Shown here piece after piece: positions 1-53,159 of a DNA stretch of 64,000 nt. The notes under the pieces were generated by a model, which saw only the letters and a program-made list of their open reading frames with translations, had not been told where the DNA came from and made no database searches. This DNA comes from an uncultured Gammaproteobacteria bacterium (GTDB lineage Bacteria > Patescibacteriota > Patescibacteriia > CAZGFX01), in assembly GCA_964524845.1 (NCBI GenBank), contig CAZGFX010000002.1:6440-70439 (forward strand), read 5' to 3'. Every line of letters begins with the position of its first letter. Position 1 is the stretch's first letter. The translations under genes and the position numbers were made by a program.

Positions 1-231
1 TTGGTAATGTATATTGCAATAGTGAATAATATCAGTATGAGGGGTTTTGAAGTCGGAGAGATTCAAAAACAAATTAAAACCGCTCGTCAAGACAATAGAG
101 AGAAACAGCTTTTTATATCAGAACTCCAATCATCTGATCGTATTAATAAATTGACAACACGACTCGATATGGTCAAAGTTGATTCAGTAGAATATATAAG
201 GCTTGATCGATCGTTTGCATTAAACAGATAA
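1..231 (+). CDS. C-terminal part of a small coiled-coil protein, possibly an FtsL/DivIC-like septation protein. The N-terminus lies upstream of the window.
   Basis: ORF is open to the window edge. Heptad-like charged sequence (EIQKQIKTARQDNREKQLFISELQ). Sits immediately upstream of a PBP transpeptidase, as ftsL does in dcw clusters. Based on context only. Confidence 0.3.
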   Translation: MVMYIAIVNNISMRGFEVGEIQKQIKTARQDNREKQLFISELQSSDRINKLTTRLDMVKVDSVEYIRLDRSFALNR

Positions 232-247
232 TAAATAGAAGAATAAT

Positions 248-1990
248 ATGGGAGGAGGGTACCATATTCAAAGGAAAGACATACACACAATGAGAATTAA
301 TTTTCTCATTGTGCCGTTTTTTATTTTTGGGATGCTTGTTGTCGGAAAACTATTTATTTTACAAGTTATAAAATCGGAGAAATACGAAGATCGTGCAATG
401 CTACAACGCCTTGTCAATAGAGATCTGATACCGGCTCGCGGAGAAATTTTTTTACGAGACAAAGAACACGGAGGACAACTACAGCCATTAGCAACAAACA
501 AGGAGTTTGATGTAATTTATGCTGTACCAGAAGAGGTGGATAATCCATATGTTACTGCAACAGTACTTGCAGATAAACTTGGCTTTGATTCTAGTGGGAA
601 AGAGGCGCTTATTGCTAAGCTTTCGAAAGAAAACGACAAATATGAACATATTGCTCGCAAGATAGATAAAAATATTGTGGAAGATGTAAAGAAACTGAAT
701 CTCAAGGGAATATATATTGGTAAAGAAACAGGTAGATATTATCCGAATAATTCTTTTGCGAGCGCTATACTAGGATTTGTTGGATGGAAAGACAAGGAGC
801 GTGTTGGAATGTATGGGCTTGAAGGATATAACAATGACGCGCTCGCAGGTATAAAAGGACATGTAACTGCGGAATATGATGGGCGTGGAAATGTAATTGG
901 TGTTGCAAAAAACGAGATAGAGCAAGCTGTAAACGGAGAAAGCTTCGTGCTTACAATAGACAAGTTCATTCAGGAAATGTCTTGCAAGAGTCTAAAAGAG
1001 GCTGTTGAGGCAAACTCAGCAGAAAACGGAGCGGTGATCATCATGGATCCTAAAACAGGTGCCATCAGAGCCATGTGTAGTTATCCGGACTTTGATCCTA
1101 ACAATTACGCGGAAGTAAGTGATGCTAGTGCATATAATAACATCACTATTCATAATGCTTATGAGCCAGGCTCTGTTTTTAAACCAATTACAATGTCAAT
1201 TGCTCTTAATGAGAAAAAAATAACACCGACAACAACATATAATGATACTGGTGTTTTCGAGATTGAAGAATATAAAATAAAAAATTCAGATGGACTTGGT
1301 CATGGAATTCAAACAATGACAGAGGTGCTCGAGAAATCTCTAAATACCGGCGCTATTTTTGCCGCACAACAAGTTGATAGAAAGAAATTTCGTGAATATA
1401 TAGAAAACTTCGGTTTCGGCTCACTTACGGGTATTCCGCTTAATACCGAAGCGTCTGGAAACATAAAATCATTAGGAAAAAATCATTTCTTATATACGGC
1501 GACAGCTTCGTTCGGACAAGGTATAACGGTTACTCCTCTTCAGCTTGTTGCTGCGTTCGGAGTGCTTGCAAACGGTGGTGCACTTATGAAACCATATATT
1601 ATCGAAGAAACACTTCATAATGATTTAACAAGCACAAAAACAGAACCGGAAGTTGTCCGTCAGATATTATCTCCTGAAACGGCGACAACAGTATCAGCAA
1701 TGATGGTATCCGTAATCAAGTCTGGCTATGGAAAAAGAGCTGGTGTAGAAGGATATAATATAGCAGGAAAAACAGGAACCGCTCAAATTACAAATCCATA
1801 TACTGGAAAGTATTATGAAAATCAATTTAATCATACGTTCGTAGGATTTGGACCAGTTGAAAATCCTCGTTTCGTTATGGTTACTTATTTAAGTAAACCA
1901 AAAAATGGAAAATTTGCAGAGAGCACCGCGGCACCTCTTTTTGGAACAATTGCAAAACAACTTTTTCAATATTATCAAATCTCATATTAA
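248..1990 (+). CDS. Penicillin-binding protein, class B transpeptidase (FtsI/PBP2 family)
   Basis: N-terminal TM helix. Active-site SxxK (GSVFKP), SxN (SLNTG) and KTGTA motifs are all present in the translated ORF. An alternative ATG lies at 290. Confidence 0.85.
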   Translation: MGGGYHIQRKDIHTMRINFLIVPFFIFGMLVVGKLFILQVIKSEKYEDRAMLQRLVNRDLIPARGEIFLRDKEHGGQLQPLATNKEFDVIYAVPEEVDNPYVTATVLADKLGFDSSGKEALIAKLSKENDKYEHIARKIDKNIVEDVKKLNLKGIYIGKETGRYYPNNSFASAILGFVGWKDKERVGMYGLEGYNNDALAGIKGHVTAEYDGRGNVIGVAKNEIEQAVNGESFVLTIDKFIQEMSCKSLKEAVEANSAENGAVIIMDPKTGAIRAMCSYPDFDPNNYAEVSDASAYNNITIHNAYEPGSVFKPITMSIALNEKKITPTTTYNDTGVFEIEEYKIKNSDGLGHGIQTMTEVLEKSLNTGAIFAAQQVDRKKFREYIENFGFGSLTGIPLNTEASGNIKSLGKNHFLYTATASFGQGITVTPLQLVAAFGVLANGGALMKPYIIEETLHNDLTSTKTEPEVVRQILSPETATTVSAMMVSVIKSGYGKRAGVEGYNIAGKTGTAQITNPYTGKYYENQFNHTFVGFGPVENPRFVMVTYLSKPKNGKFAESTAAPLFGTIAKQLFQYYQISY

Positions 1991-1993
1991 TAT

Positions 1994-3190
1994 ATGGGGT
2001 ATATAATTAAAAACTTGCTTCGTGTCATCTCTCGTTTAATTATTAAAAAATATTCTCCTATTATCATAGGCGTGACCGGGTCTGTAGGGAAAACATCCGT
2101 AAAAGAATATTTATATCATTTTTTAAAAGACACGAGAAATGTGTGTGTTTCTTTTGGTAATTACAATAACGAATTTGGTCTTCCGCGTACAATAATTTCT
2201 CCGAGATCTCATAAGTTTGGATTGTTTGGAGATTTTTTTAGATGTTTTTTGTTTCTTGTTTTTCCATTACCATATCCATCATATCTGATATTAGAATATG
2301 GTTCCGATAAACCTGGTGATATAAAGTATCTTTGTAATATAGTAAAACCGTTTTTGTCTATTATTACAGCCATAACAGATGCTCATAGCGCAGCATACAA
2401 AAATAAAAATGCTTTATTTGATGAAAAAATGACGCTTGCGAAAATGACAGATAGAAACGGGGCTGTTATATTTGGCGTCGATCATATTGATTATAAAGAG
2501 ATAGACATTCCTAATCAGATATATACTTATGGGAGACTTGATGGAAGCGATGTTCGTCTGATTGGTTTTGATTACGATTTTGATCCATTTTCAACAACTG
2601 TAAAAATTGATTATAAAGGAAATACTATTCCTTTTAGAGTGCGGCAATTATTAAGTTCAGGGCAGGTATATTCACTTCTCGGGGCTATATGCGCCGCACG
2701 CGTATGTGATGTACCACTACTTGATATTATAAGAAAAGCTGAACACCTATCTGTGATGCATGGAAGGGGAAACATACTTCCATCAATTAAAAATGGATAT
2801 ATTATTGACGAAACATATAATGCATCAACAGAATCAACTATTTCAGCACTAACTCTTCTTGATGCGACTACGCACGTTAACAAAGTATTAATTCTGGGAG
2901 ATTTGTTTGAATTAAGTGATGATGCAATAAAAAATGCGATTACAAAAATAAGTGATTTTTTAATAAAAAGTTCTATCAATTACATATTTCTCGTTGGTGA
3001 AAAAATCAGGCCAGTTTATGATATTTTAAAAAAAGATAAATACAATAACATGCTTGAATGGTACGCGACAACCGATGAGTGTATGAAAAAACTTCCTTGG
3101 AAATATCCGGAAAGAGCTTTTTGTCTTGTAAAAGGATCGCGTGCGGCGCATATGGAGAAGATTGTACATATTATAAAAGAAAGCTTTTAA
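1994..3190 (+). CDS. murF: Mur ligase family protein, MurF-like (UDP-MurNAc-tripeptide--D-Ala-D-Ala ligase), lacking the usual N-terminal domain
   Basis: Mur ligase P-loop GVTGSVGKTS at residues 27-36. C-domain motifs IIDETYNAS (DxSYNAN-like) and ILGDLFELS (MurF GDMxELG-like). Position directly after the PBP gene. Confidence 0.65.
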   Translation: MGYIIKNLLRVISRLIIKKYSPIIIGVTGSVGKTSVKEYLYHFLKDTRNVCVSFGNYNNEFGLPRTIISPRSHKFGLFGDFFRCFLFLVFPLPYPSYLILEYGSDKPGDIKYLCNIVKPFLSIITAITDAHSAAYKNKNALFDEKMTLAKMTDRNGAVIFGVDHIDYKEIDIPNQIYTYGRLDGSDVRLIGFDYDFDPFSTTVKIDYKGNTIPFRVRQLLSSGQVYSLLGAICAARVCDVPLLDIIRKAEHLSVMHGRGNILPSIKNGYIIDETYNASTESTISALTLLDATTHVNKVLILGDLFELSDDAIKNAITKISDFLIKSSINYIFLVGEKIRPVYDILKKDKYNNMLEWYATTDECMKKLPWKYPERAFCLVKGSRAAHMEKIVHIIKESF

Positions 3191-3289
3191 TTTTTTAAAG
3201 AGCTATATTTTATCTAAAACTAGGTAAAAAACGTTAATTAAAGTACGGGTATTTACAAAAGTGCATTTTTTTGTTACTCTTTAGCCATT

Positions 3290-4900
3290 ATGACAATAGG
3301 AAATAATACGATTCGCGAGGAAGTATTGGGTCTTCTAAAAGGATATGAGGAGACCGCAGATCTTTCTATGATAGATGGGCCACGTGTCCATGTAAGCAAT
3401 ATCATTGGAAAGCTGGCTTTCGTATACGAAAAAATTCGAAACTCAGTAGATGCAAAAGATGAGAAACTTCTTCATAAGTACGCGATACTTCGAATATTAA
3501 GACGAAGAGTTTTGACACACAAAGATCACTACATGATTGCAGAGTCACTAGTGAAGGAGCTTATTCGAGCAGGGTACATGCCAAATGATTATATTCCTGA
3601 GAAGCTTATTGATGAGATTAAACATGTTATAGATAAATACTTCATGCTTTTGGCACATCTCACTGAATACAATAAACAACAAGAAACAGACGAGTTGCTT
3701 ATGGGGCTTCTGGATATTGCGGCGTGTGAGATAGAGGAGTTGCTTATTCCTGGTGTGCGCGAGCGTGCGCTCGTATCTGCTGCATTTGATTTCTTGCGTC
3801 CTCGTATTACTTATAAAAACATCGAGATCGCGGAGAGCGATCGCGACGTACAATTATACCTAGCTTGTTACAGAGTATTCGTAAGTTCTGACAAAGGAAT
3901 GCTTTCTTATGAGCTTTTGAAATTGTATTTTCCTGATTGGCAAAACGCAGATGAAGTGCTTATTCTCGATGTTGCTCAGAGATTTAGTGCAATATCTCAT
4001 ATTTTAAAGATAATTAACTCATATAAACTTTCCCAAAAACTTTTTAAAGTTGTAAAAAGATTTGCCGTACCTATGCTTGCGGTTCGCGACTCGGTTTTGA
4101 ATACACAGGGCCCGGCCGCCGCACTTCAGCTTATTTCTGATAAAAAAGCATTTAATTTAGCGATTCGCAACGCATATGTGATCAGATACTCGAACGCTCG
4201 CGCACGTCTTCGCAAGCTTGCGACACGTGCAATTATTTATATGTTTATTACGAAGATGGTCATCGCTGTTGCACTTGAGGTGCCATATGACATTCTCATT
4301 GAAAAACAACTCCATCTTTTTGCAATAGGAATTAATGTTTTGTTTCCGCCGGTTCTTTTGTTTCTTATGATTGTTTTGATGAGATATCCGAGAAACGATA
4401 ATCTCGATCTAGTTGTGGATGCGGCGAATGAGATAGTTGATAAAGAAAGTACGACCAAGCATCTTAATTTTGAGGTTGCGTTTAAGAAGAAACATCATCC
4501 ATTAAATTCATTTCTTATTAAGAGTTCGTATGTGGTTATATTTTTGGGTGTGTTTTATATTTTAATATCATCGCTTGTCGGCCTTCATTTTAATATAGCC
4601 AGTATAATTATGTTTTTGTTTTTTCTCTCACTTGTTTCTTTTTTTGGTGTACGTATCAGGAGAACTGTGCAAGATCTCGTTTTCGTGGAGAGAAAAGAAA
4701 ATATATTTACTGTCATACTAGATTTCTTTTCTGTACCAATTATCAAATCAGGAAGATGGCTTTCAACAGGACTTGCGAATATAAATATATTTGTTGTTCT
4801 TCTTGATTGGTTTATAGAACTTCCTTTCAAAGTGCTTATAGACCTCATCGAAGACACCTCCGTTTATCTAAAAGAGAAGAGGGATGATGGTTCTCTATAA
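3290..4900 (+). CDS. Hypothetical protein. Soluble N-terminal half, multi-pass membrane C-terminal half.
   Basis: Long ORF with coding-like composition. Several hydrophobic helices after residue ~300. No motif I recognise. Confidence 0.55.
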   Translation: MTIGNNTIREEVLGLLKGYEETADLSMIDGPRVHVSNIIGKLAFVYEKIRNSVDAKDEKLLHKYAILRILRRRVLTHKDHYMIAESLVKELIRAGYMPNDYIPEKLIDEIKHVIDKYFMLLAHLTEYNKQQETDELLMGLLDIAACEIEELLIPGVRERALVSAAFDFLRPRITYKNIEIAESDRDVQLYLACYRVFVSSDKGMLSYELLKLYFPDWQNADEVLILDVAQRFSAISHILKIINSYKLSQKLFKVVKRFAVPMLAVRDSVLNTQGPAAALQLISDKKAFNLAIRNAYVIRYSNARARLRKLATRAIIYMFITKMVIAVALEVPYDILIEKQLHLFAIGINVLFPPVLLFLMIVLMRYPRNDNLDLVVDAANEIVDKESTTKHLNFEVAFKKKHHPLNSFLIKSSYVVIFLGVFYILISSLVGLHFNIASIIMFLFFLSLVSFFGVRIRRTVQDLVFVERKENIFTVILDFFSVPIIKSGRWLSTGLANINIFVVLLDWFIELPFKVLIDLIEDTSVYLKEKRDDGSL

Positions 4901-4915
4901 TTTTCATTTTTTGTT

Positions 4916-5734
4916 ATGATCAATTTGTTTTTATCAAGCGCGCTTCCATTTGTTGTTTCGCTTATTATTCTTTATATATTTTCAAAAGCGCTAAGCAAGA
5001 GATCTGTAAGGGTGCTTGGTTTTAAGGGTTCGATACTTTTGTTGTGGGTTGGTACAACAATACATGAGCTTTCTCATCTTCTTGGATGCTTTCTAACTCT
5101 TACAAAAGTTGAGAAAATAGCTTTTTTTAAACCGGAAAAACAAGAAGACGGTTCTTATCGTCTAGGATACGTCTCTCATGTTAGTCCAAAAAATCCTCTT
5201 TCAAGTATGATTATCGGACTCATGCCGTTAGTTGGCGGAGCTCTCGTACTATGGTTTTCTTCCAAGTGGCTTATTCCTGAAGCGCATCTTGTTGTTTTGA
5301 ATGTTAATGATATTACATCGTGGTATCAAGGTATCATATATGGTTTTTTGAAAAGCGGGGAGGCTTTGTGGAATGTTGTACTATCAATTGATTTCTCTCA
5401 CTGGCAAACATATTTGTTTTTTTATTTGTCATTCTCGATAGGCGCGCACCTTTCTCCTTCCGGACAGGATTTCAAAAATGCACGAACAGGACTTATAACT
5501 CTTGGCATAATAATAGTAGCGCTATATATTTTGAATATTTTTTATGGTTTTCTTGGGGTATTAATAGGTGTGGCCGGTGTGTATGCAGGGGAATATATAA
5601 TAGCGCTTACATCCGTAATGCAGTTCGCTACACTTCTCATAATCGTATGTATTATTATATGCGAAATCATATACTGGCTTCGCAATAAGCTTTTTTACAA
5701 AAAACCAATAGATCCGAACTGGTTCGCTTCTTGA
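4916..5734 (+). CDS. Polytopic membrane protein with an HExxH motif (putative membrane zinc metalloprotease-like)
   Basis: Six or more hydrophobic segments. HELSHLLG sits at the end of the second helix. Confidence 0.5.
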   Translation: MINLFLSSALPFVVSLIILYIFSKALSKRSVRVLGFKGSILLLWVGTTIHELSHLLGCFLTLTKVEKIAFFKPEKQEDGSYRLGYVSHVSPKNPLSSMIIGLMPLVGGALVLWFSSKWLIPEAHLVVLNVNDITSWYQGIIYGFLKSGEALWNVVLSIDFSHWQTYLFFYLSFSIGAHLSPSGQDFKNARTGLITLGIIIVALYILNIFYGFLGVLIGVAGVYAGEYIIALTSVMQFATLLIIVCIIICEIIYWLRNKLFYKKPIDPNWFAS

Positions 5735-5801
5735 TAATTGATATCAAACACACAAAATCAGCTGAAATAGGCTGTTTTTTTGTATTCGTGTGTACAAAAC
5801 C

Positions 5802-5830
5802 TTGACAGGATTGTCTCCGTGTGTTATCAT
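5802..5830 (+). promoter_or_regulatory. Sigma70-type promoter, cassette copy 1: TTGACA 5802-5807, 17-bp spacer, TGtTATCAT extended -10 ending at 5830
   Basis: Exact consensus -35, TGn extended -10 and 17-bp spacer. AAGGAG RBS lies 8 nt before the ATG at 5877. Confidence 0.65.
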
Positions 5831-5876
5831 TCTATGATAAAAACTAAAATAAAACAAATGAGAAAAGGAGAGAATT

Positions 5877-6986
5877 ATGGAAAAGTTAATATTTGAATTT
5901 GAGGAACTGATAGAAAAAATCGGTTTAGGAAGAGTTGTTGCCGCATTCTACGAAAAAATTCCTAAAGAGTTTTTTGAAAACATGACTTTTGATGAGTGGA
6001 TGCAGGTTTACGAATTTACTACATCAGGAAGCGATTTACAAAAAATCGTTCTCCGAAAAATTTCGGAATTTAAAAAAACATTTGATGAGTGGGAAAAAGT
6101 TTACATCGATCAAGATTACTCAGATGATCACCATACCTTCCTCACTTCAGAAGAAGTTGATTTAAATAGTCTTGTTTTCAAAAAAAAGTTAGAAACCGCG
6201 GAGACGTTTGATGAGTGGGAAAAAGTTTACATCGATCCAGATGACCGTTATGACCATATCTGCCTCACTTCAGAAGAAATTGATTTAATAAGCAGTCTCG
6301 CTCTCAAAAAAATGTTTTTTATTGCAAAAACGTTTGATGAATGGATGCGGGTTTACAAATTTACTACATCAGGAAGCGATCTTGAAAAACTCGCTATTCA
6401 AAAAATGTCAGAATTTACAAAAACATTTGATGAGTGGAAGGTAGTTTACGAAAACTTTCCATCCGAAAGTGAACTTCAAAAACTCGCTATTCAAAAAATG
6501 TCAGAAGTTGCAAAGACATTTGATGAATGGATGTTGGTTTACAAAAAATCTCCATCCGAAAGCGAGTCTCAAAAACTCGCTATTCAGAAGATATCAGAAG
6601 TTGCAAACACATTTGATGAGTGGAAGGTGGGTTACGAAAACTCTCCATCCGAAAGTGAGCTTCGAAAACTTGCTGTTCAAAAAATGTCAGAAGTTGCAAA
6701 GACATTTGGTGAATTGTGGATTGTTTACTTCTACTCTCCATCCGAAAGTGAGCTTCAAAAACTCGCTATTCAAAAAATGTCAGAGACAGCAAAGCATTTT
6801 TATGAATGGGAGATGCTTTGCGGATGCTCTCCATCCGAAAGCGAGTCTCAAAAACTCGTTATTCAAAAAATGTTAGAGCTTGCAGAAACACTTGATGAAT
6901 GGAAGGCAGTTTACGAATATTCTCCATCCGAAAGCGAGCCTCAAAAACTCGCTCTTCAAAAAATGGGCGAATTCGTTCAGGTCTAA
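5877..6986 (+). CDS. Repeat protein, paralog A: about 35-aa leader plus 10 tandem 31-42-aa repeats of type TFDEWxxVY(xx)SPSESELQKLAIQKMSEVAK
   Basis: Strong promoter and RBS. In-frame 93-bp DNA repeats; three consecutive units at 6424-6702 are near-identical. No signal peptide. Confidence 0.7.
   Translation: MEKLIFEFEELIEKIGLGRVVAAFYEKIPKEFFENMTFDEWMQVYEFTTSGSDLQKIVLRKISEFKKTFDEWEKVYIDQDYSDDHHTFLTSEEVDLNSLVFKKKLETAETFDEWEKVYIDPDDRYDHICLTSEEIDLISSLALKKMFFIAKTFDEWMRVYKFTTSGSDLEKLAIQKMSEFTKTFDEWKVVYENFPSESELQKLAIQKMSEVAKTFDEWMLVYKKSPSESESQKLAIQKISEVANTFDEWKVGYENSPSESELRKLAVQKMSEVAKTFGELWIVYFYSPSESELQKLAIQKMSETAKHFYEWEMLCGCSPSESESQKLVIQKMLELAETLDEWKAVYEYSPSESEPQKLALQKMGEFVQV
5985..6983 (+). repeat. 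In-frame tandem repeat array, 93-bp unit (two units are 126 bp), about 10 copies
   Basis: The recurring DNA word tttgatgagtgg...tccatccgaaagtgagcttcaaaaactcgctattcaaaaaatgtcagaagttgcaaagaca is directly visible. It causes the spurious alternative-frame ORF 6469-6876. Confidence 0.85.
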
Positions 6987-7004
6987 TAAGTTTCAAAATT
7001 TAAC

Positions 7005-7047
7005 ACCCCTTGCTTGTATTAAACAGGCAAGGGGATTTTTTTATAAA
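7005..7047 (+). terminator. Rho-independent terminator: ccccttgcttg / caggcaagggg stem, 7-nt loop, T7 run
   Basis: 11-bp stem with one G-U pair followed by TTTTTTT, immediately after the stop of the 5877-6986 gene. Confidence 0.8.
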
Positions 7048-7092
7048 ACCAGCTGAAATAAGCTGTTTTTTGTATTTGTATACACAAAAACC

Positions 7093-7121
7093 TTGACAGG
7101 ACTGTCCTTATGTGCTATTAT
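7093..7121 (+). promoter_or_regulatory. Sigma70-type promoter, cassette copy 2: TTGACA 7093-7098, 17-bp spacer, TGcTATTAT
   Basis: Consensus -35, extended -10 and 17-bp spacer. AAGGAG RBS before the ATG at 7171. Confidence 0.65.
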
Positions 7122-7170
7122 TTAATGATAAAAACATAAACAAACAAAAACAAAAAATAAGGAGAAAATC

Positions 7171-7854
7171 ATGGAAAAGATGTCATTTGATGAATTAGTA
7201 GGAAAAATTGGTTTTGGGCCAGCTGTTGTCATTTGTTACAAAAAACTTACAAAAGAGTTTTTTGAAAGACAGACATTTAAAGAATGGAAAACAATTTACG
7301 AAAATGCTCTATCCGGAAGCGATTTGAAAAAACTCGTATTAGAAGAGAAGATGTTAGGTCTTGCAAAAACGTTTGACGAATGTGTGTATATTCTCAAAAA
7401 CATTTCATCCGGAGATGAGTTTAGAAGACTTGTTCTTCAAAAAATGTTAGAACTTGCAAAGACCCCTCATGAGTGTATATTTGTTTATAATAACACGCCA
7501 GAAATAAGTATGTTTAAGAGGCCTGTTATTGAAAAAATATCAGAGATTGCAGAAACGATTGACGCATGGGTATTTGTTTATAACAATTCCTCATTCATAA
7601 TCGAGTTTAAAAGTATGGGTGAGCTTAAAAAACTTGCTTTAGAGAAGATTATGCTTGCAAAGACGTTTGACGAGTGGAAGTATGTTTACAAAAATTCCCA
7701 ATTAGGAAGTGAATTAAAAAGTCTCGCAATTCAGAAAATGTTAGAGTTTGATAATACATTTCATGAATGGATGTCTGTTTACAATGACTATTCATACGGA
7801 AGCGATTTGAAAGAACTCGTTCTCCAGAAGATGTCTGAATTCATTGAAGTATAA
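7171..7854 (+). CDS. Repeat protein, paralog B: same leader, about 6 degenerate 31-aa repeats
   Basis: N-terminus MEKMSFDELVGKIGFGPAVVICYKKLTKEFFERQTFKEW aligns to the N-termini of paralogs A and C. Repeats of type TFDEWKYVYKNSQLGSELKSLAIQKMLEF. Confidence 0.7.
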   Translation: MEKMSFDELVGKIGFGPAVVICYKKLTKEFFERQTFKEWKTIYENALSGSDLKKLVLEEKMLGLAKTFDECVYILKNISSGDEFRRLVLQKMLELAKTPHECIFVYNNTPEISMFKRPVIEKISEIAETIDAWVFVYNNSSFIIEFKSMGELKKLALEKIMLAKTFDEWKYVYKNSQLGSELKSLAIQKMLEFDNTFHEWMSVYNDYSYGSDLKELVLQKMSEFIEV

Positions 7855-7860
7855 TATAAA

Positions 7861-7898
7861 CCCCTTGCTTGTATTAAACAGGCAAGGGGATTTTTTTA
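7861..7898 (+). terminator. Rho-independent terminator, same hairpin as at 7005
   Basis: ccccttgcttgtattaaacaggcaaggggattttttt. Confidence 0.8.
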
Positions 7899-7943
7899 TA
7901 AAATCAGCTTAAATAGGCTGTTTTTGTGTTCTCATAAGTTGTG

Positions 7944-7972
7944 TTGACAAAATCTTTTACACATGTTATCAT
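7944..7972 (+). promoter_or_regulatory. Sigma70-type promoter, cassette copy 3: TTGACA 7944-7949, 17-bp spacer, TGtTATCAT
   Basis: Consensus elements. This is the more diverged cassette copy. Confidence 0.6.
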
Positions 7973-8025
7973 TTTACGATAAAAACAAATAAGTAAATAA
8001 ACAGACAAAAAAGAAGAAGAAAATT

Positions 8026-8268
8026 ATGAGAAAGATATCATTTGGTGAATCAGTAGAAAAACTCGGGTTTGGGCTAGCTGTTGTCACTCATTATGAAGAA
8101 CTTTCAAAAGAGTTTTTTGAAAAATTAACATTTGATGAATGGGTGTGGGTTTACAACCAATCTTTATCAGGAAGCGATTTACAAAAACTTGCCTTAAAGA
8201 AGATTTCGGAAATTTCAAAGAAGATCGACGAATTGATACCTATTCATAAAAACGTTCTATCTGATTAA
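8026..8268 (+). CDS. Repeat protein, paralog C: leader plus a single repeat unit (80 aa)
   Basis: MRKISFGESVEKLGFGLAVVTHYEELSKEFFEKLTFDEWVWVYNQSLSGSDLQKLALKKISE matches the leader and first repeat of paralogs A and B. Confidence 0.6.
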   Translation: MRKISFGESVEKLGFGLAVVTHYEELSKEFFEKLTFDEWVWVYNQSLSGSDLQKLALKKISEISKKIDELIPIHKNVLSD

Positions 8269-8273
8269 TAAAC

Positions 8274-8312
8274 ACCCCTTGCTTGTATTAAACAGGCAAG
8301 GGGATTTTTTTA
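8274..8312 (+). terminator. Rho-independent terminator, third copy of the same hairpin
   Basis: ccccttgcttgtattaaacaggcaaggggattttttt. Confidence 0.8.
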
Positions 8313-8361
8313 TAAAACCAGCTGAAATAAGCTGTTTTTTTGTATTCATGTGTATAAAACC

Positions 8362-8390
8362 TTGACAGAATTGTCTCCGTGTGCTATCAT
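8362..8390 (+). promoter_or_regulatory. Sigma70-type promoter, cassette copy 4: TTGACA 8362-8367, 17-bp spacer, TGcTATCAT
   Basis: Consensus elements. AAGGAGAAGG RBS before the ATG at 8437. Confidence 0.65.
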
Positions 8391-8436
8391 TTAATGATAA
8401 AAATATAAACAAAAAACAAAAAATAAGGAGAAGGTC

Positions 8437-9018
8437 ATGGAAAACTCAAAATCTAACTATGAATTCATCAAACCGATGTCTGTTGTTGAACAGGTGCGAA
8501 TTTTGAAAAATCTGTTTCCAGATGAGCTCGGTGAAAAGGTTTTCGATGAAGATATTGCGACAAACCTGATTTCCATAGGAGCGGGAAGATGTTTCGCAAT
8601 TCCAAAATGGCAACTTTTCGGAAAAAATTATTATGAAGCGTGCGAGAAGGTTCTTCGTGCACTTTCAAATAGCAGAAATGGCAAATTTCGTAACAAAATC
8701 ATCATCGATACAGAAAATCTTCGTGAATCAAAAGAGAAAATTTCAGGGCTTAAAAAAAACGCCGATGCACAAAAAGGAAATGATATTCTCGTTATTTCGG
8801 GACAATTGACAGATAATGAGTTAAGACTAGGAATATTTGAGACTGCGATAATACTCATCGCACACTATAAAAATATTTATAAATATAACAATTTAAAGAT
8901 CGACTGTGCTGGAGATGAGTCTACTTGTTTTGGCGGCGCTTTCTTTAATATGCCCGAATTCAGCATTGTGGGGGACGAGCTATGGTTGTCTGATTATTCT
9001 AAGTTTTATGCATTTTAG
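8437..9018 (+). CDS. Hypothetical protein (193 aa), unrelated to the repeat paralogs but driven by the same promoter cassette
   Basis: ORF with strong promoter and RBS. No recognisable motif. Confidence 0.55.
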   Translation: MENSKSNYEFIKPMSVVEQVRILKNLFPDELGEKVFDEDIATNLISIGAGRCFAIPKWQLFGKNYYEACEKVLRALSNSRNGKFRNKIIIDTENLRESKEKISGLKKNADAQKGNDILVISGQLTDNELRLGIFETAIILIAHYKNIYKYNNLKIDCAGDESTCFGGAFFNMPEFSIVGDELWLSDYSKFYAF

Positions 9019-9044
9019 AGCATTTTAAAAATTACATATTAAAC

Positions 9045-9080
9045 AAAAAGGTTATCCAAAACATGGATGACCTTTTTTTA
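9045..9080. terminator. Bidirectional hairpin terminator between the convergent genes 8437-9018 and 9094-9444
   Basis: aggttatcc/ggatgacct stem (one G-U pair) flanked by an A-run and a T-run. Confidence 0.5.
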
Positions 9081-9093
9081 TTTTATTAATTAC

Positions 9094-9444
9094 TTACAAC
9101 ACTTTCTGTATAACCCACGTGATGATTCCGTATATGAGTGCGGCGATGATTAGTTCTTTCGTTCCGCCGTTTATTGAAACGGCTGTCGCATATTTCGTCG
9201 CGCCCCAAAACAATAATATATTTATCGCTATATTGATAAATATCGTCGCCAGTCCCAACGTGATGATTTTCAAAGGAACGGAGAGCGCTTTTGCAATTGG
9301 TTTTATAATAGTGTTGGCAATACCGAAAATAAGCAGAGATATTAGAATCGCCTTCGTATCTCCGTGAATTTGCAGTGCCGGGTATATATAAGATACAAGC
9401 AATAATGCTGCGCCATTCAATATAATTCTTAATATAAATTTCAT
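9094..9444 (-). CDS. Small four-helix membrane protein of the phage holin family 4 / YvlD-like type
   Basis: 116 aa. Pattern LxxVxxxPALxIxGxxxALxxxLxxGxxNxxIxPI...L..PL.I.TLG resembles the PF04020-type proteins as I recall them. No lysin or phage genes nearby. Confidence 0.5.
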   Translation of the reverse strand: MKFILRIILNGAALLLVSYIYPALQIHGDTKAILISLLIFGIANTIIKPIAKALSVPLKIITLGLATIFINIAINILLFWGATKYATAVSINGGTKELIIAALIYGIITWVIQKVL

Positions 9445-9576: not shown

Positions 9577-10596
9577 ATGGCAAAAAAAATAAGGATTGCG
9601 ATCAATGGATTTGGTCGTATAGGACGAGGAGCATTTCGCGCGGCTCTTGAGAGAAAAAACATTGAAGTTGTTGGAATAAACGATCTTCAACAACCATCAG
9701 CTCTTGCACACCTTTTAACTTATGATTCGGTATATGGGCGTTTTAGAAGCGCTGTAAAATCTGATATTTCGAGCATAACTGTTGGGAAAACAAAAATACC
9801 AGTATATGCGGAAAAAGATCCGAGTAAGCTTCCTTGGAAAAAATTGGGAGTAGATTTAGTCCTAGAATGCACGGGTTTTTTCACTGATGATTCTGCATCG
9901 CTTCATATAAAAGCCGGTGCGAAGCGAGTTATAATATCCGCTCCCGCAAAAAGCAAAACAAATTCTATAAAAACATTTGTTCAAGGAGTAAACACAGAGA
10001 AAGGTGAATTTAAAAAAGAAGTTGTAATTTCAAACGCATCATGTACGACGAACTCTCTTGCGCCTGTGATGGAGGTCATAAACCGCGTGTTTGGTATTAA
10101 AAAGGCTGTCATGACGACCGTACACGCTTATACAGCGGATCAGACGCTTGTTGATGGACCGCACAAAGACTTAAGGCGCGCGCGGTCTGCCGCAATCAAT
10201 ATTATACCTACGACAACAGGTGCCGCGCGCGCCGTCACAGAAACAATTCCTGAACTCAAAGGAATGTTTGACGGAACAGCGCTAAGGGTTCCTGTTCCGG
10301 TAGGATCGATTTCTGATATAACGATGGTTCTTTCAGAAAAAACAACAATAGAAAAAGTACATGCTGTATTGAATAAAGAATCGATGTCAAAAAGATACAA
10401 AGGAATTATAGAGTGTACAAACGATCCGATTGTATCAACTGATATTATTAAAAACCCATATTCAAGTATTGTTGATTTATCTTTAACAAAACTTATAGAT
10501 GGTGATTTGTTAAAGTTGTTCGTTTGGTACGACAACGAGTGGGGATACAGTATGCGCCTTATTGATATGGCGGAAACTATCACATCAGAAAAATAA
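9577..10596 (+). CDS. gap: Glyceraldehyde-3-phosphate dehydrogenase
   Basis: NGFGRIGR NAD-binding motif. Catalytic-site motif SNASCTTN. WYDNEWGYS C-terminal signature. Confidence 0.95.
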   Translation: MAKKIRIAINGFGRIGRGAFRAALERKNIEVVGINDLQQPSALAHLLTYDSVYGRFRSAVKSDISSITVGKTKIPVYAEKDPSKLPWKKLGVDLVLECTGFFTDDSASLHIKAGAKRVIISAPAKSKTNSIKTFVQGVNTEKGEFKKEVVISNASCTTNSLAPVMEVINRVFGIKKAVMTTVHAYTADQTLVDGPHKDLRRARSAAINIIPTTTGAARAVTETIPELKGMFDGTALRVPVPVGSISDITMVLSEKTTIEKVHAVLNKESMSKRYKGIIECTNDPIVSTDIIKNPYSSIVDLSLTKLIDGDLLKLFVWYDNEWGYSMRLIDMAETITSEK

Positions 10597-10599
10597 CAT

Positions 10600-11139
10600 A
10601 TGATGATATTTTTATACGCAAAAGACAATCCAACTCCTAAGCACGCTGATAGGAGAAGGTTTTTGCTTAGTGAATTTCAAAAGAAAGGTGTTCAATTTGT
10701 TACAAACATCGCAGGACATGGCGGTTCGACACTTCCGTACGGATCAGGTGGCGTGGCGCTAGATGAGGAAGATTTTTTCTATGGAGCTGACGGAGTGTGT
10801 GTCGAATATGACGATCCAGATTTCAATCTGCATATTATAGCGCGTGCGTGCGTTGAAAGATCCGTACCGCTTGTAGTTCTTGTTCATGATTCTGTTTCAA
10901 GTGAAGAACAAATTCCTGAATATGCGAAAATTCTAAGATATACGAAAGATAATTGTTCGGATAAAATTGAAGAGATTTTAAATATTTGCGCCGCGCCACC
11001 AACATCATTACAATCTGTGAAATTTACAGTAAGAATTACTCCACAAATCGAGAGGTTTTTGGATAGAGAGGCGAAAAAACAATCTGTATCAAAAGCCGAT
11101 TTTGTCAGGAAACTGATCGAAGATAAAATGGAAAAATAA
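10600..11139 (+). CDS. Hypothetical protein with a C-terminal ribbon-helix-helix (CopG/Arc-like) DNA-binding module
   Basis: C-terminal ~40 aa: KFTVRITPQIERFLDREAKKQSVSKADFVRKLIEDKM, a beta-strand then helix pattern typical of RHH. The gene lies between gap and pgk with 3-nt and 17-nt spacing, so it is co-transcribed. Confidence 0.55.
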   Translation: MMIFLYAKDNPTPKHADRRRFLLSEFQKKGVQFVTNIAGHGGSTLPYGSGGVALDEEDFFYGADGVCVEYDDPDFNLHIIARACVERSVPLVVLVHDSVSSEEQIPEYAKILRYTKDNCSDKIEEILNICAAPPTSLQSVKFTVRITPQIERFLDREAKKQSVSKADFVRKLIEDKMEK

Positions 11140-11156
11140 GATGCTCAATAATTTTT

Positions 11157-12449
11157 ATGAAAAAACAGAAACCAATTAAAACATGGAAAAAGATTCGTTC
11201 TTGGAAAAATAAGAAAGTACTTATAAGAGCTGATTTAGATATACCATTTTATAATGGCAAACTTATTTTAAATGACGAGAGTGATATTCGTTTGAAAAGT
11301 GCAGTGAGTACGTTTCGTACATTTATTGCAAAGAAAAGTATTCCAATTGTACTTGCTCACGTAGGACGCCCAACGACAAATAATAAAAAGATGTTTGATA
11401 TGAGTCTCGTGGCTCGTAGAATAGGATATTTGTGTAATAAAAAGACACATAATATTAGTCTCATTGATGTTCCATTAAGAAAACGATTTTTTAGTTTATC
11501 AACTAAAACCAAAAAATATATTAATGAGTTATCAGATGAGGTTTTTCTGATTACGTCTAGAAAAATATACGGAAAAATAATTTCATATAATGAGCTTAAG
11601 ATTGGGGATATTTTAATACTTCAAAACACTCGATTTTGGAAAGAAGAAGAAAAAAACGATCAACAGTTTGCAAAAGCCTTGTCTTGTTTTGGAGATTTTT
11701 TTATCAATGATGCGTTCGCTACTTGTCACAGGGAGCATGCGTCAACATATGGTGTTATGAAATTTCTTTCGTCATATGCCGGACCAATTCTTGAACGCGA
11801 GATTAAAAATATTGATCGAGTTTTACGAGGATTTCATCGGCCACTTGTTTGTGTTGTTGGAGGAGCAAAGATTTCAACCAAACTCGGAGTGATAAAAAGA
11901 TTTTTATCAATCGCAGACCACGTTATTGTCGGAGGTGGTGTAGCAAACACTTTTTTTTCAGCGCAAGGACACGATATTGGTTTATCATTAATTGAAGAAA
12001 AGGCAAAAAATGAAGCAAAAAAGCTTTTAAAGAATAAAAAGTTAATACTTCCGATCGATGTCGTTGTATCAAAAACAAATAGGCGCATACAGAGAGGAAC
12101 ACGAACCGTCTCTGTGGATCAGGTTTTAAAAGATGAATATATTGTTGATATTGGACCAAAAACGCTTTCCCGCATTCTTCCTATTATTGTGTCTGCCGGA
12201 ACTATTATTTGGAACGGGCCTCTTGGGCTTTTTGAAGAAAAAAATGCCTCATCAGGGACTTATTCTTTTGCGCGAGCAGTGGCAAGATCAAAAGCCTTTT
12301 CGCTTGTTGGAGGCGGAGAAACTCTGATGGTTTTGTCTGTTTTGGGTATTTCTAAAAAAATCTCATATATATCACTTGGAGGAGGCGCCCTTCTAAAATA
12401 CGTTGAAAATAAAGGAAATCTAAAAGTTATCAACAGGTTAAGAGGGTAA
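11157..12449 (+). CDS. pgk: Phosphoglycerate kinase
   Basis: RADLDIP, GGGVANTF, IIWNGPLGLFE and GGGET motifs in the PGK order. Confidence 0.9.
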   Translation: MKKQKPIKTWKKIRSWKNKKVLIRADLDIPFYNGKLILNDESDIRLKSAVSTFRTFIAKKSIPIVLAHVGRPTTNNKKMFDMSLVARRIGYLCNKKTHNISLIDVPLRKRFFSLSTKTKKYINELSDEVFLITSRKIYGKIISYNELKIGDILILQNTRFWKEEEKNDQQFAKALSCFGDFFINDAFATCHREHASTYGVMKFLSSYAGPILEREIKNIDRVLRGFHRPLVCVVGGAKISTKLGVIKRFLSIADHVIVGGGVANTFFSAQGHDIGLSLIEEKAKNEAKKLLKNKKLILPIDVVVSKTNRRIQRGTRTVSVDQVLKDEYIVDIGPKTLSRILPIIVSAGTIIWNGPLGLFEEKNASSGTYSFARAVARSKAFSLVGGGETLMVLSVLGISKKISYISLGGGALLKYVENKGNLKVINRLRG

Positions 12450-12979
12450 GGTGTTGTTGTGAAAAAACTAAAAATATGCTATGATATATTCGAACTTCGG
12501 AGAGAGAAGTTCTTACGACAAAAAATCACCCTTTTCGCTTGTTTTAGCGAAAAATATCAAAATACAATTTTAGATAGAAATAAATAGCTTAATAATGCCA
12601 TATTTTTATATCATGTGTATTATTATGCAAAGAAAGAAACTGTCGTAGCGCTAACCCATTAAAAAAACCATTATGATCCAAGATGCCCACGGGTGCACCA
12701 CAATGCTTTGTAAAGCAGAATATAAAGCTCGTGAAATTGGTCAGCATATCGTTCGTGGCATCGTAAGTCTGCCTATAGCGATTATATCTGGGTTTTATAT
12801 CCAACTTGTTGCATTTCATTATGGAAGTGCTGACGCAACGGGGATATCCTCAGTATTGCTTCACCCAATATCGCTTTTTGTGGCAGTACCGATGTTTTTG
12901 CGATCGGTATTCTCAATTTTTATGAGATTCCGTAACGCGCTTGAAATATGGAGCATTGAATAAAGATGCACCTTTTCGA

Positions 12980-13017
12980 CAGCCGATTCTTATTATTAAG
13001 AGTCGGCTGTTTTTTTG
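12980..13017 (+). terminator. Hairpin terminator (cagccgattctt / aagagtcggctg, T8 run)
   Basis: 12-bp stem with one wobble pair, followed by TTTTTTTT. It ends an otherwise unexplained unit upstream of eno. Confidence 0.55.
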
Positions 13018-13036
13018 TGATTAAAACAAGAATTTT

Positions 13037-13045
13037 TGCTATAAT
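13037..13045 (+). promoter_or_regulatory. Extended -10 (TGcTATAAT) for eno-gpmI
   Basis: tttttgctataat lies 36 nt before the eno ATG. Confidence 0.4.
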
Positions 13046-13080
13046 ACAGTATATATAAATTAATTTTATAAAAAATAGTT

Positions 13081-30161: not shown

Positions 30162-33100
30162 ATGTTACAGCGCTTATTTAAAAAACATTTTTTTACCGGC
30201 GTATGTTTTGTTATAGCCGGAATATTTTTTGGCCTTACTGCGCATGCGGTGGAAGTAGATTTTACCGTAGCACAGCAGGCAGGATTCGGTTCTTCTACTC
30301 TTGAAGATATTGTTATTAATACAATAAAAATAATTCTTGGTTTTCTAGGTCTTGCGGCAGTTCTTATCACTCTATATGGAGGATATATATGGATGTCGTC
30401 AGGAGGAAATTTAGAAAAAATTACAAAAGCAAAGAAGACATTAAGCGCTGGCGTTGTTGGTTTGGCGATTGTGCTCAGTGCGTTTTCAATCGCTCATTTT
30501 ATTTTTGGTATTTTTGATGACGTAATGGGAGGTGGAGGAGGAATTGTAAACGAAGATACTGGTGGTGGAGATGGTGGTTGTATTGGATCGGCTTGTTTAG
30601 CTGGTGGCTCAGGAGGATTTTCCGTTTCTTCTGTTAATCCAGGAAACGGTGCGACTGCAATAGCACTTTGTAGGAAGGTGCAAGCTGTTTTTAATTCAAA
30701 TGTTGATTCCGCTTCTGTTAATTCGAATAATTTTAAAATATCATATAACAATGAGGGTTCCCAGTCTGTTATAAATGGTAATTATGCAGTAAGCGCAAAC
30801 GGTTTAACTTTTAGGCATACCGAATTGTTTCCGGCAAATAAAATAATAAATGGATATATTGCGGACGGAACCGGTTCGATAAGAAGTACAGCAGGAATCG
30901 AGATAGCGAGCAACAGAGGAAGAAACTGGTCTTTCACAACAGGAACGGAGGTTGATTCTGTTTTACCAACGGTCGATGATGTTTTTCCGTCTAGCGGCAT
31001 GAAAGATGTATGCAGAAACACAACAATAGAAATAGTATTTAGTGAAATAATGGATATTTCAACTCTTAATTACGATACAATTAAATTATTTGATGATAAG
31101 GGTAATCAAATTAATCTTTCTGGTCTGAAAATAACATCTACATTCGATTCTGTTATTATTCGTCCAGCAAGCACTCTTGAGGAAAACAAGGTGTATCGAG
31201 TTGTCGCGAGTGGAAATATAAGCGACGCGTGCGATAATAAACTTGATGGAAACAAAAATAACACAGCAGAAGGATCTCCAACTGATGATTTTGTGTGGAC
31301 ATTTACAACAGGAACAGAGATGAACTGTAGTCCGATAATTACAAACATGTCGATACAATCTGGTGCTTATGATAGCCAAACATACGAAGTTGTAATTACA
31401 GGAAAATATCTTGGTATTGCCGGTGATACTCAATTTGGAAATCTAGAATCAGGAGACAATACTTTTTGTTCATTATTTGGAACATGCGAGGATGAGGAGG
31501 ATGGTTTTGTTGTAAAAAGCAGAACTAATAACAGATGGATAACGAGAGTTCCTGTTGGTTCTGTGACAAGTCCATTAAAAATAGTTAAAGAAGAGGGTGG
31601 CCAGAGCAATGCACAATCTTTTACTGTTTTAAGTCCTTATCTGTCAGGGGTCGAAGAAAAAAGTGGAAGAGCTGGTAATTTCTTCACTTTGTATGGTACA
31701 AATTTTGGATCTGAGCCAGGAAAGGTTTCGTTTGTTTATAATGATGAAGAAGGAAATCAAAAAAGAATAGAAGCGGCTCAACTATGTAAAGAAAATGCTT
31801 GGCACGAGGATTATATTGTAGCGAACGTACCAGATCTACCAGATGCGGAATATCAAATACAAATTGAAACTGCCACCGGATTACCAAGTAATATAATTGA
31901 TTTTACAATTGATAGTACAATTCCTTCAAATCCGGGACTTTGCGGAGCAGTGCCTGTTTGTACAAACTCAGAGATGTTTCCTGTACAAACAATAGGTGTT
32001 AATCTTGGTGCCGTACCAGGAAAACTTGAGTTTACACTTGGAACAATAGAAATTCCTCCTGCCGCACAAGTAGACTGGAAGGATAATGGAATAGATTTTC
32101 GAGTAAAAGATGTAAAAAATGGAATGCATAAAATCCGCGCAACACGAATTGAAGGGAGTGGTGATGATAAGAAAGAGTTGCGTTCAAACCCTGTGTTTAT
32201 AGAAAAGCCATGCCCACCACCAAGTCCATTAAAACCTGTAATAAAATCAATTTCGCCTGATAATGGATCTAGTAAAGAAGGTACCAACACAATAATTACA
32301 ATCCTTGGGGATACTTTGGTGTATTCTGGATTGGGCGGAAAACAATCTATGTATAATGGTACTGTTGCAAAAAACTTTGGGGACAAAGGAGGTGTTGTGT
32401 ATTTTTGTCCTACAAATTTAACATTGCCAATATTACCGGGCGATGACAGGTGTGTTTCTGTATCTAAGGGAGAGTGTTTCGAATGGATAGATAACGAGAT
32501 TACTGTTACTACACCAACTCTTGCAGAAGGTGTGTATTCGGTTTATGTAAGTAAAGAAAATATTTATACAAGTGATATAAATCCTGTTGCAAAATTTACA
32601 AGTAATTCCATAGTGCGTCCTGGACTGTGTACGATTTCACCAAAAAACGGACCGGATAATACAAAAGTTACACTTACAGGCAAAACCCTTGGCGATGAAA
32701 GGGCAGATGTTGATGGTAAGATAGAATATTATAAAAATAGCTCATTTGGATTTTCAGATAATATAGAATCATGGACAAACAAGAGTATAACTCATACATC
32801 TGTATCTAATTTACCAGAACAACAATCTCTTGTTCGTGCTTGGATTACAATTCCTGATCGCGGGCAAGGTGGGGTTTTGACTTCGGGAACATATCAATCT
32901 AATTCAAAATCTTTTTATTCAAACCCTATTATTAAAGAAATATCTCCATCGAACGGACCGGTTGGTACGTATGTGAGTATTTTTGGAAAAAACTTTGGCA
33001 ATGTTCCGGGCAGAGTAATATTTAAAAAAGGTTCTGATGTGGTTGATGCAGGTGGTATAAATTGTCCTATGACATGGAAAGATAACTATGTGATAGTTTC

Positions 33101-52591: not shown

Positions 52592-52607
52592 TTTTTAGTA
52601 TCAAAAA

Positions 52608-52987
52608 GTCTTATTGAGATCATAAGCCGAATTCTGTTTCTGCCAAAGGCAGACAACGATCATCTCTCTAGTCCTTTCGTTACCAAAAGGATCAAGCAGC
52701 CAACCCATCCCGTCAAGCGGGATCTACTTGGCCTTGCACCCGATAGAAGTTTGCCTGTTTTTGCATGTCACCATGTAAACCGCGAGAATCTTACCTCTCG
52801 CATTTCACCCATCACCTATCGATTACTCTCAAGGCTGGTTTATTTTCTGTTGCACTTGTCCTATCCTACCAAAGTGGGACGGTGGGCGTTACCCATTATC
52901 ATGAATCAGAACTTCTTCTGAAACGGTGTTCGGACTTTCCTCTCTCCCGCCGATGGCGGGACAGCGATCGTTTTACCCAATAAGACC
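52608..52987 (-). ncRNA. rnpB: RNase P RNA, bacterial type A-like
   Basis: Minus-strand reading contains GAGAGGAAAGTCCGAACACC, GGTAACGCC, AGTGCAACAGAAA, GGGTGAAA...GGTAAGA, GCAAGGCCAA, GGTTGGCTGCTTGA and ACAGAATTCGGCTTAT in the canonical order. The ends pair as P1 (GTCTTATTG/CAATAAGAC). Confidence 0.85.
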
Positions 52988-53159
52988 ACCCATACTCTAC
53001 TATAAAAAGCTAGAAATGTGAAGCTTCTAAAAAATAATTGAATACTTATATTTAATATGTGGAAAATTAATTGACAAATAAATAAATAAAAGTATAATTA
53101 ACATATCAAGATAAGAGGACTACCAAAGGGATTTTCCCTAGGGAATGCCTCTTTTTTTG

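Follow-up and report, generated by a model that had tools for sequence, protein, structure and literature searches.

Bacterial multigene families can undergo concerted evolution through gene conversion of shared segments, and several classes of small non-autonomous repeats, namely Correia elements (Correia repeat enclosed elements, CREE), miniature inverted-repeat transposable elements (MITEs) and repetitive extragenic palindromes with their bacterial interspersed mosaic elements (REP/BIME), bear promoters or terminators. In integrons, promoterless cassettes with attC sites form arrays that are expressed from a common promoter (Pc) beside an integrase gene. Putative mobile promoters are defined by an identity of at least 80% over at least 50 nt within positions −150 to −51 of the start codon, in genes whose downstream and upstream coding sequences must not align (Matus-Garcia, Nijveen and van Passel, 2012; PMC3488235; PMC3575422); cases of whole-gene duplication are a class excluded there (Matus-Garcia et al., 2012; PMC3488235). 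Here, we compare these systems with an array found in a 64-kb stretch of contig CAZGFX010000002.1 (GenBank assembly GCA_964524845.1; hereafter the window, numbered from its first nucleotide). Four control regions lie there in the same orientation within 2.7 kb, ending at 5876, 7170, 8025 and 8436, directly before four genes that we call g1 to g4, and each consists of a small hairpin with a T-run, a TTGACA-17-TGnTATYAT promoter and an unstructured A-rich leader. We hold with moderate confidence that the array is a lineage-specific island of tandem transcription units, whose control ends evolve in concert and one of whose promoters was reused in a single event. On this reading, it is a case of ordinary duplication, gene conversion and promoter reuse, and neither a new mobile element nor a new kind of element.

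The array shares with bacterial tandem paralogue arrays that evolve in concert its head-to-tail units, the extension of homology across promoter, coding sequence and terminator, the differences in length that arise as repeats are gained and lost, and a statistically supported mosaic among copies. It differs from them in that the non-coding ends are homogenised or conserved while the coding regions stand at a synonymous divergence (dS) of 0.5–1, and in that one control region serves a non-homologous gene. Like Correia elements, MITEs and REP/BIME, it presents a short repeated intergenic sequence with a hairpin and promoter-like hexamers; however, it has no terminal inverted repeats or target-site duplication, its copies in the window are local and their ends are the boundaries of gene units. 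The integron model does not apply either, as each unit here has its own promoter and terminator.

Repeated transcription units and their parts

Homology among the first three units crosses promoter, coding sequence and terminator and delimits them at about 5754–7044, 7045–7899 and 7900–8313, with three direct-repeat families (D3, D4 and D5) connecting the promoter, the 5′ coding sequence and the terminator. The 5′ coding sequences of g1–g3 form a 180-nt repeat family with 64–71% identity (67–73% in global alignment), and the 3′ coding sequences of g1 and g2 are 70% identical. Because the homology continues into both the 5′ and the 3′ coding sequence, the repeated entity is the whole transcription unit. 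At their ends, units 1–3 thus show the homology into coding sequence that head-to-tail duplication of whole units predicts, the signature of tandem duplication. A paralogue does not follow every control region, as copy 4 precedes g4.

The products of g1–g3 have an N-terminal domain and 31-residue repeats in common; an N-terminal protein alignment spans all three, and a hidden Markov model (HMM) of the family matches each of them. g3, a copy of the g2 type, breaks off within repeat 2. Tandem arrays inside g1 (window 6074–6965; two 126-nt and seven 93-nt repeats at 78–84% identity) indicate recent intragenic repeat expansion. The three proteins fall into an unnamed family of about 338 representatives at 50% clustering, and neither these three nor g4 gave a significant Pfam, NCBIfam, PADLOC or PHROG match from which a function could be read. 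The AlphaFold model of g2 (predicted local distance difference test score, pLDDT, 90.6) is an all-alpha helical-hairpin solenoid, for which Foldseek returned no PDB structure at E<1e-3 and a resemblance only to generic TPR, HAT or designed repeat proteins. TPR/HAT-like alpha-solenoids and g1–g3 are alike in their predicted helical-hairpin repeats of about 31 residues, whereas the repeat motif (TFDEW..VY...S.SE..KLA.QKM.E.AK) and the N-terminal domain (SF.ELV.K.GFG.AV) are the family's own. Most other family loci fetched from public contigs are single-copy, and only a 1.2-kb contig (L015) has two adjacent or overlapping family open reading frames (ORFs); the amplification is therefore essentially local to the source genome, and we rule out that the family generally forms tandem arrays. 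A search of metagenome and viral contigs with the N-terminal alignment of the family gave 0 confirmed relatives.

Three of the four control regions have a large terminator directly 5′ of them. It consists of a 29-nt hairpin, CCCCTTGCTTGTATTAAACAGGCAAGGGG, followed by A and T7 (hairpins at 7006–7034, 7861–7889 and 8275–8303), and the three copies are 100% identical, against a chance expectation of 0 matches in shuffled sequence. The hairpin folds into a 12-bp stem with 7 GC pairs and a 5-nt loop (dG −21.3 kcal/mol, z = −5.7), starts 7–20 nt past each stop codon and has the features of a predicted intrinsic terminator; it has the highest stability of all terminator-like hairpins in the 64-kb window. 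It belongs to the upstream gene, being the 3′ terminus of the paralogue that lies before it. Copy 1 has no large terminator because the gene preceding it encodes a 272-aa membrane protein and has the small hairpin as its terminator. This small hairpin, CAGCTKAAATARGCTG with a T-run, occurs four times in the array with 0.01 matches expected by chance. Its stem of 5–6 bp is lengthened by flanking A4/T-tracts (dG −7.6 to −9.8), and the changes between copies preserve pairing (U–A versus U–G). As the terminator of the 272-aa gene, the first small hairpin was carried along in the duplication. No known RNA family was detected in the module at the Rfam gathering score, the best sub-threshold matches, NsiR1 (29.7 bits; gathering score 39) and RAGATH-1 (33.6 bits; 56.3), lying on the terminator hairpin.

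About 22 nt 3′ of each small hairpin lies a promoter-like sequence, TTGACA-17 nt-TATCAT or -TATTAT with an extended −10 TG, which matches 11 of 12 consensus positions in all four copies. Only eight sites in the whole window match at least 11 of the 12 positions, half of them being those of the array. TTGACA, a 17-nt spacer, TGn and TAnnnT, the features of a sigma-70 promoter with an extended −10 element, are present in four of four copies, which we regard as predicted promoters, and transcription of each gene would start about 7 nt after the −10 element. The leaders are about 40 nt long, A-rich and essentially without predicted structure (dG 0 to −2.7), and in copies 1, 2 and 4 they contain AAGGAG 6–7 nt 5′ of the ATG, which has degenerated to AAGAAG in copy 3. 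A palindrome, TATCAT-N3-ATGATA, uses the −10 hexamer as its left arm and spans the inferred transcription start (5825–5839, 7116–7130, 7967–7981 and 8385–8399); elsewhere in the window it occurs at a single coding site. In copies 1, 2 and 4, GACA-N4-TGTC also overlies the −35 element. Both motifs are possible operators through which the four genes would be controlled in common, and we found no candidate regulator for the palindromes.

Most of the description in the initial annotation of this DNA was borne out. Our scans located all four parts of the module, in four copies with the ends given above, including the small hairpin with its T-run and the near-perfect sigma70 promoter. The lack of a large hairpin in copy 1 was correctly attributed to an unrelated upstream gene, and the position of three copies before paralogous repeat proteins and of the fourth before an unrelated 193-aa gene was also correctly given. 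Promoter-like and terminator-like signals bracket each gene, in agreement with the proposed insulation that sets the array apart from the neighbouring operons. Two details needed amendment: the terminator and its T7 are present, but the stem, given as 11 bp, folds as 12 bp; and the leader is A-rich in all copies, but the AAGGAG ascribed to it is AAGAAG in copy 3. The −10 palindrome was absent from that description.

Conservation of the control ends and probable capture of a promoter

Aligned with one another, the four modules have a mean column identity of 78%. The terminator blocks are 94–98% identical, loop and flanks included, and from the hairpin to the ATG the identity is 77–85% among copies 1, 2 and 4 and 67–69% between copy 3 and the others. 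The N-terminal regions of the paralogues differ by a dS of 0.48–1.03, with a ratio of non-synonymous to synonymous divergence (dN/dS) of 0.33–0.69. By this comparison, the control ends are far better conserved than synonymous sites, and the modules are not passive passengers of the duplication. In the most diverged module, copy 3, the only columns left unchanged are those of the hairpin, TTGACA, ATGTTATCATT and GATAAAAA, a pattern that represents a footprint of functional constraint. For a lineage without genetics, the four paralogous control regions serve as a natural phylogenetic footprint: drift has spared the hairpin, the −35 element, the extended −10 element, a palindrome over the −10 element and the start site, and the terminator. 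They supply testable promoter, operator and terminator parts for an organism resembling the candidate phyla radiation (CPR).

Copy 4 is a patchwork of the other copies. Its terminator and small hairpin follow copy 2, the 11 consecutive informative sites between the T-run and the promoter spacer follow copy 1, and the stretch between the −10 element and the ribosome-binding site returns to copy 2. The string of informative sites, 22111111111112122222122222222, departs from random order (runs test P ~0.001; longest-run P ~3e-5) and indicates gene conversion or recombination among the copies. The same process best explains why the terminators are identical even in their loops. The array would be a case of diverging coding regions whose non-coding ends undergo gene conversion.

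These data bear on the central claim of the initial annotation, namely that the module looks like a portable expression cassette and not a by-product of gene duplication. The claim is not supported in this form, given that homology continues into the coding sequences and that the module spans the boundary between two neighbouring units. What survives of its portability is the conservation beyond synonymous sites, the mosaic structure and one reuse before a non-homologous gene, while terminal repeats and other copies in the window were not found. Alignment of the modules below about 70% identity had been named as a refutation: the mean lies above this level and copy 3 lies at it, with its functional cores intact.

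The single reuse concerns g4. The fourth control region remains similar to the second as far as the end of ATGGAAAA, beyond which identity is at background level, so that the junction is an 8-nt identity opening both reading frames. No homologue of g4 other than itself exists among 5.8 billion protein clusters, and exact look-ups returned no contigs bearing g4 or g3. The possibility that g4 is a frameshifted or decayed paralogue is ruled out, because the family HMM has no match to it in six frames. A single-sequence structure model (pLDDT 41) was unusable. The locus provides a concrete promoter-capture event, in which an orphan gene is joined at its start codon to the promoter of a gene family.

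We propose the following origin for the array. The ancestral unit would have consisted of an A4-hairpin-T7 element, an UP-like A/T tract, TTGACA-17-TGnTATCAT, an A-rich leader of about 40 nt, AAGGAG, a repeat-protein gene and a terminator with a 12-bp stem and T7. This single autonomous unit would have been amplified head-to-tail into three by unequal recombination. The coding sequences then diverged and changed in repeat number, as is evident from their products of 369, 227 and 80 aa. Purifying selection would hold the functional cores (the hairpin, the −35 element, the extended −10 element, the TATCAT-N3-ATGATA palindrome and the terminator), and short gene-conversion tracts would homogenise the control ends, leaving terminator blocks at ~100% identity and copy 4 as a copy 2/1/2 mosaic. 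Most likely, a microhomology-mediated deletion or unequal exchange at ATGGAAAA removed a fourth paralogue, by which g4 would have gained the family promoter, leader and ribosome-binding site. Each gene would now be monocistronic, preceded by two terminators in tandem and closed by a strong terminator. The four genes should be co-regulated, because one promoter type and a possible operator over the −10 element and the start are common to all.

Several points weigh against this reading. Promoter and terminator activity, transcription starts and the monocistronic state are all deduced from sequence. It is ambiguous which way the g4 event went, because neither homologues nor syntenic relatives were found for g4, the 272-aa gene next to the array or the locus; the promoter may originally have belonged to g4 and then been gained by a repeat gene. 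Part of the conservation could be explained by selection alone, without gene conversion. The search for copies inside the source genome covers the 64-kb window, and dispersed copies elsewhere in that genome are conceivable. Positions 6111–9054 rest on a single short-read contig of the NCBI metagenome-assembled genome (MAG), and near-identical blocks of about 65 nt could affect the order and copy number of the units.

Alternative origins of the array

A different history would be the serial, site-specific insertion of single-gene cassettes, each of which duplicates an att-like junction, with g4 as the original resident and owner of the promoter. It accounts for the number of junction copies, which exceeds the number of paralogues by one, and for the position of the last copy 5′ of an unrelated gene. 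We nevertheless consider it quite unlikely, as the three inserted genes would be paralogues with identical terminators, a finding that fits local duplication better, and as no recombinase gene adjoins the array or occurs among the eight large window ORFs scanned with Pfam (the other window ORFs were unscanned). An analogue of such a history exists in a related contig (L014; Logan SRR12486999_49673). In this contig, the last ~56 nt of uvrB recur three more times in intergenic positions with 75–88% identity (copies at 5351–5406, 5848–5903, 7192–7247 and 8350–8405), each copy lying 3′ of a terminator hairpin and 5′ of a TTGACA that precedes the next gene. We recognised these hairpins and TTGACA motifs by reading the sequence; an automated scan confirmed only one terminator and one promoter among them. 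The genes between the copies are unrelated (83 aa; 381 aa, a member of the repeat family, P0015; and 317 aa), and the contig gives the impression that single-gene cassettes were inserted serially at one att-like site. The analogy is incomplete in that L014 repeats the 3′ end of the upstream gene, whereas the 3′ end of the 272-aa gene in the window is not repeated.

A hybrid origin of the array, in which cassettes accrete at a hotspot, each insertion duplicating a 60–120-nt junction, and local duplication adds to them, seems improbable to us, because the units are paralogues with identical terminators. If it were true, cassette accretion leaving junction scars may be common in CPR genomes.

Very unlikely, in our judgement, is a mobile cassette composed of the hairpin–promoter–leader block, with or without the terminator, that was inserted independently 5′ of each gene. 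Between −150 and −51, the control region of g4 is 91.8% identical over 73 nt to that of g1, 86% over 100 nt to that of g2 and 90% over 60 nt to that of g3. For g1 and g4, moreover, the sequences from +50 to +149 are unalignable, and so are the genes upstream of them (the 272-aa gene and g3), so that this pair falls within the definition of a putative mobile promoter in identity and in both kinds of non-homology. All other pairs fall outside it because a flanking gene is homologous, downstream among g1–g3 and upstream for g2/g4 and g3/g4. The array also differs from putative mobile promoters in having four members only, all adjacent, of which three are explained by whole-gene duplication, and in showing no sign of a mobilising element. 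The greater conservation of the modules relative to the adjoining coding DNA, which a mobile cassette would account for, has to be set against the homology that three of the four copies show into coding sequence on both sides.

Searches for traces of mobility point the same way. An inverted-repeat search gave internal hairpins only, with no terminal inverted repeats or target duplications, and the left end of the block (AAAAYCAGCTG) and its right end (ribosome-binding site and ATG) are not inverted copies of each other. No integrase, recombinase or transposase gene adjoins the array. The other 61 kb of the window contain no further copies when the parts are searched with up to 3 mismatches, and all four lie in one orientation within 2.7 kb. 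The hairpin-plus-TTGACA pattern had one match in 185,579 GTDB species genomes, in a Candidatus Moraniibacteriota MAG; the window's own four copies were not returned, and the source genome is therefore probably absent from the collection or masked. The match (L001:3869–3907, minus strand), AAAAAACAGCTGAAATAAGCTGTTTTTTT, shares a 16-nt hairpin with copies 2 and 4, followed by TTGACA-17-TATAAT 5′ of a 116-aa gene, and has nothing else in common with the array. Though an identical hairpin with TTGACA might seem to favour a mobile cassette, only the hairpin and a generic −35 hexamer are shared, which rules the match out as evidence of mobility; it is probably a convergent terminator–promoter junction. 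The promoter pattern gave 0 matches in JGI metagenomes, and the hairpin–promoter pattern and the terminator pattern gave 0 matches each in viral contigs. Within the searches made, there is no positive evidence for the block moving by itself.

Two independent Logan assemblies match the window at 1–6110 and from 9055 onward with 0 mismatches. That the array, or its copy number or order, is an artefact of short-read MAG assembly is hardly credible: both assemblies break at the array edges (6110 and 9055), a 15-billion-protein collection lacks exact matches to the g1 and g2 proteins and the ~65-nt near-identical blocks could allow mis-joins, but the four modules and three paralogues differ by 15–35% and cannot be one copy collapsed or expanded, unique sequence adjoins every promoter copy to the left and to the right, an independent assembly reproduces copy 1 together with the start of g1 at 0 mismatches, and the two assemblies end where g1 carries an exact repeat within itself (6110; L010) and in the loop of a palindromic terminator, which are typical break points of de Bruijn graphs.

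Genomic setting and other features of the window

The features of the array are collected in Table 1.

Table 1. Coordinates of the array features in the window; promoters, terminators and transcription starts are predictions.
Feature	Position	Strand	Remarks
Left end of duplication unit 1	homology from about 5754	+	marked by small hairpin 1
Small hairpin 1 (CAGCTGAAATAGGCTG) + T7	5759–5781	+	predicted terminator of 272-aa gene (stop 5734)
Promoter 1	5802–5830	+	TTGACA-17-TATCAT, TG; palindrome TATCAT-TCT-ATGATA 5825–5839; inferred start ~5837
Leader 1	5837–5876	+	A-rich, unstructured; AAGGAG 5865–5870
g1	5877–6986	+	369 aa; N-terminal domain, ~2 × 42-aa and ~7 × 31-aa (93-nt) helical-hairpin repeats
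g1 terminator	7006–7042	+	12-bp stem, dG −21.3, T7
Small hairpin 2 + T-run	7050–7071	+	begins unit 2
Promoter 2	7093–7121	+	TTGACA-17-TATTAT, TG
Leader 2	7128–7170	+	AAGGAG 7159–7164
g2	7171–7854	+	227 aa; paralogue of g1
g2 terminator	7861–7897	+	identical to g1 terminator
Small hairpin 3 + T5	7905–7925	+	6-bp stem variant
Promoter 3	7944–7972	+	TTGACA-17-TATCAT, TG; flanks and spacer most diverged of four
Leader 3	7979–8025	+	AAGAAG ribosome-binding site
g3	8026–8268	+	80 aa; truncated paralogue, N-terminal domain and one repeat, stops inside repeat 2
g3 terminator	8275–8311	+	identical to g1 and g2 terminators
Small hairpin 4 + T7	8319–8341	+	
Promoter 4	8362–8390	+	TTGACA-17-TATCAT, TG; copy-1-like/copy-2-like mosaic
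Leader 4	8397–8444	+	AAGGAG 8425–8430; ATGGAAAA 8437–8444, where homology to paralogue units ends
g4	8437–9018	+	193 aa; orphan, unrelated to g1–g3
g4 terminator	9045–9084	+	different from the others; 14-bp stem, dG −17.1; faces convergent holin-family gene 9094–9444 (−)

Upstream, the island is flanked by a cell-division and membrane cluster of mraZ-rsmH-PBP-Mur-type genes and two membrane proteins, and downstream by the holin-family gene and then a glycolytic operon (the gap-pgk-eno-gpmI cluster). The operons on both sides are tightly packed, whereas each array gene is bracketed by its own promoter-like and terminator-like signals. The array has the same GC content as its surroundings, which rules out a compositional island. 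With its low GC content (34.6%) and CPR-like gene content, the host genome is small and probably of CPR type.

The organism appears phylogenetically isolated in current databases. The gene for the 272-aa membrane protein resembles g4 in having no homologue but itself among the 5.8 billion protein clusters. For a 536-aa gene (within window 3290–5734), one JGI relative was found, in the same 90%-identity cluster and on a 1.75-kb contig.

Other observations concern the rest of the window. In the glycolytic operon, a 179-aa gene with a HicB-family domain at its C-terminus (10600–11139, plus strand) lies between gap (9577–10596) and pgk (11157–12449). The 631-nt gap between pgk and eno (12450–13080) holds a 96-aa ORF (12673–12963) and a very strong terminator-like hairpin that ends at about 13010 (dG −20.5). 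A giant ORF of 2875 aa (30162–38789, plus strand) encodes Big_5 and TIG Ig-like domains and resembles a typical surface protein of CPR bacteria. Finally, an intergenic element at 53071–53158 (plus strand) adjoins the RNase P RNA gene (52607–52983, minus strand). About 10 nt beyond a perfect TTGACA-16-TATAAT, it has a 45-nt stem-loop (dG −20.9, z = −3.4) with T7; it lacks a match in Rfam and may encode a small RNA of about 50 nt.

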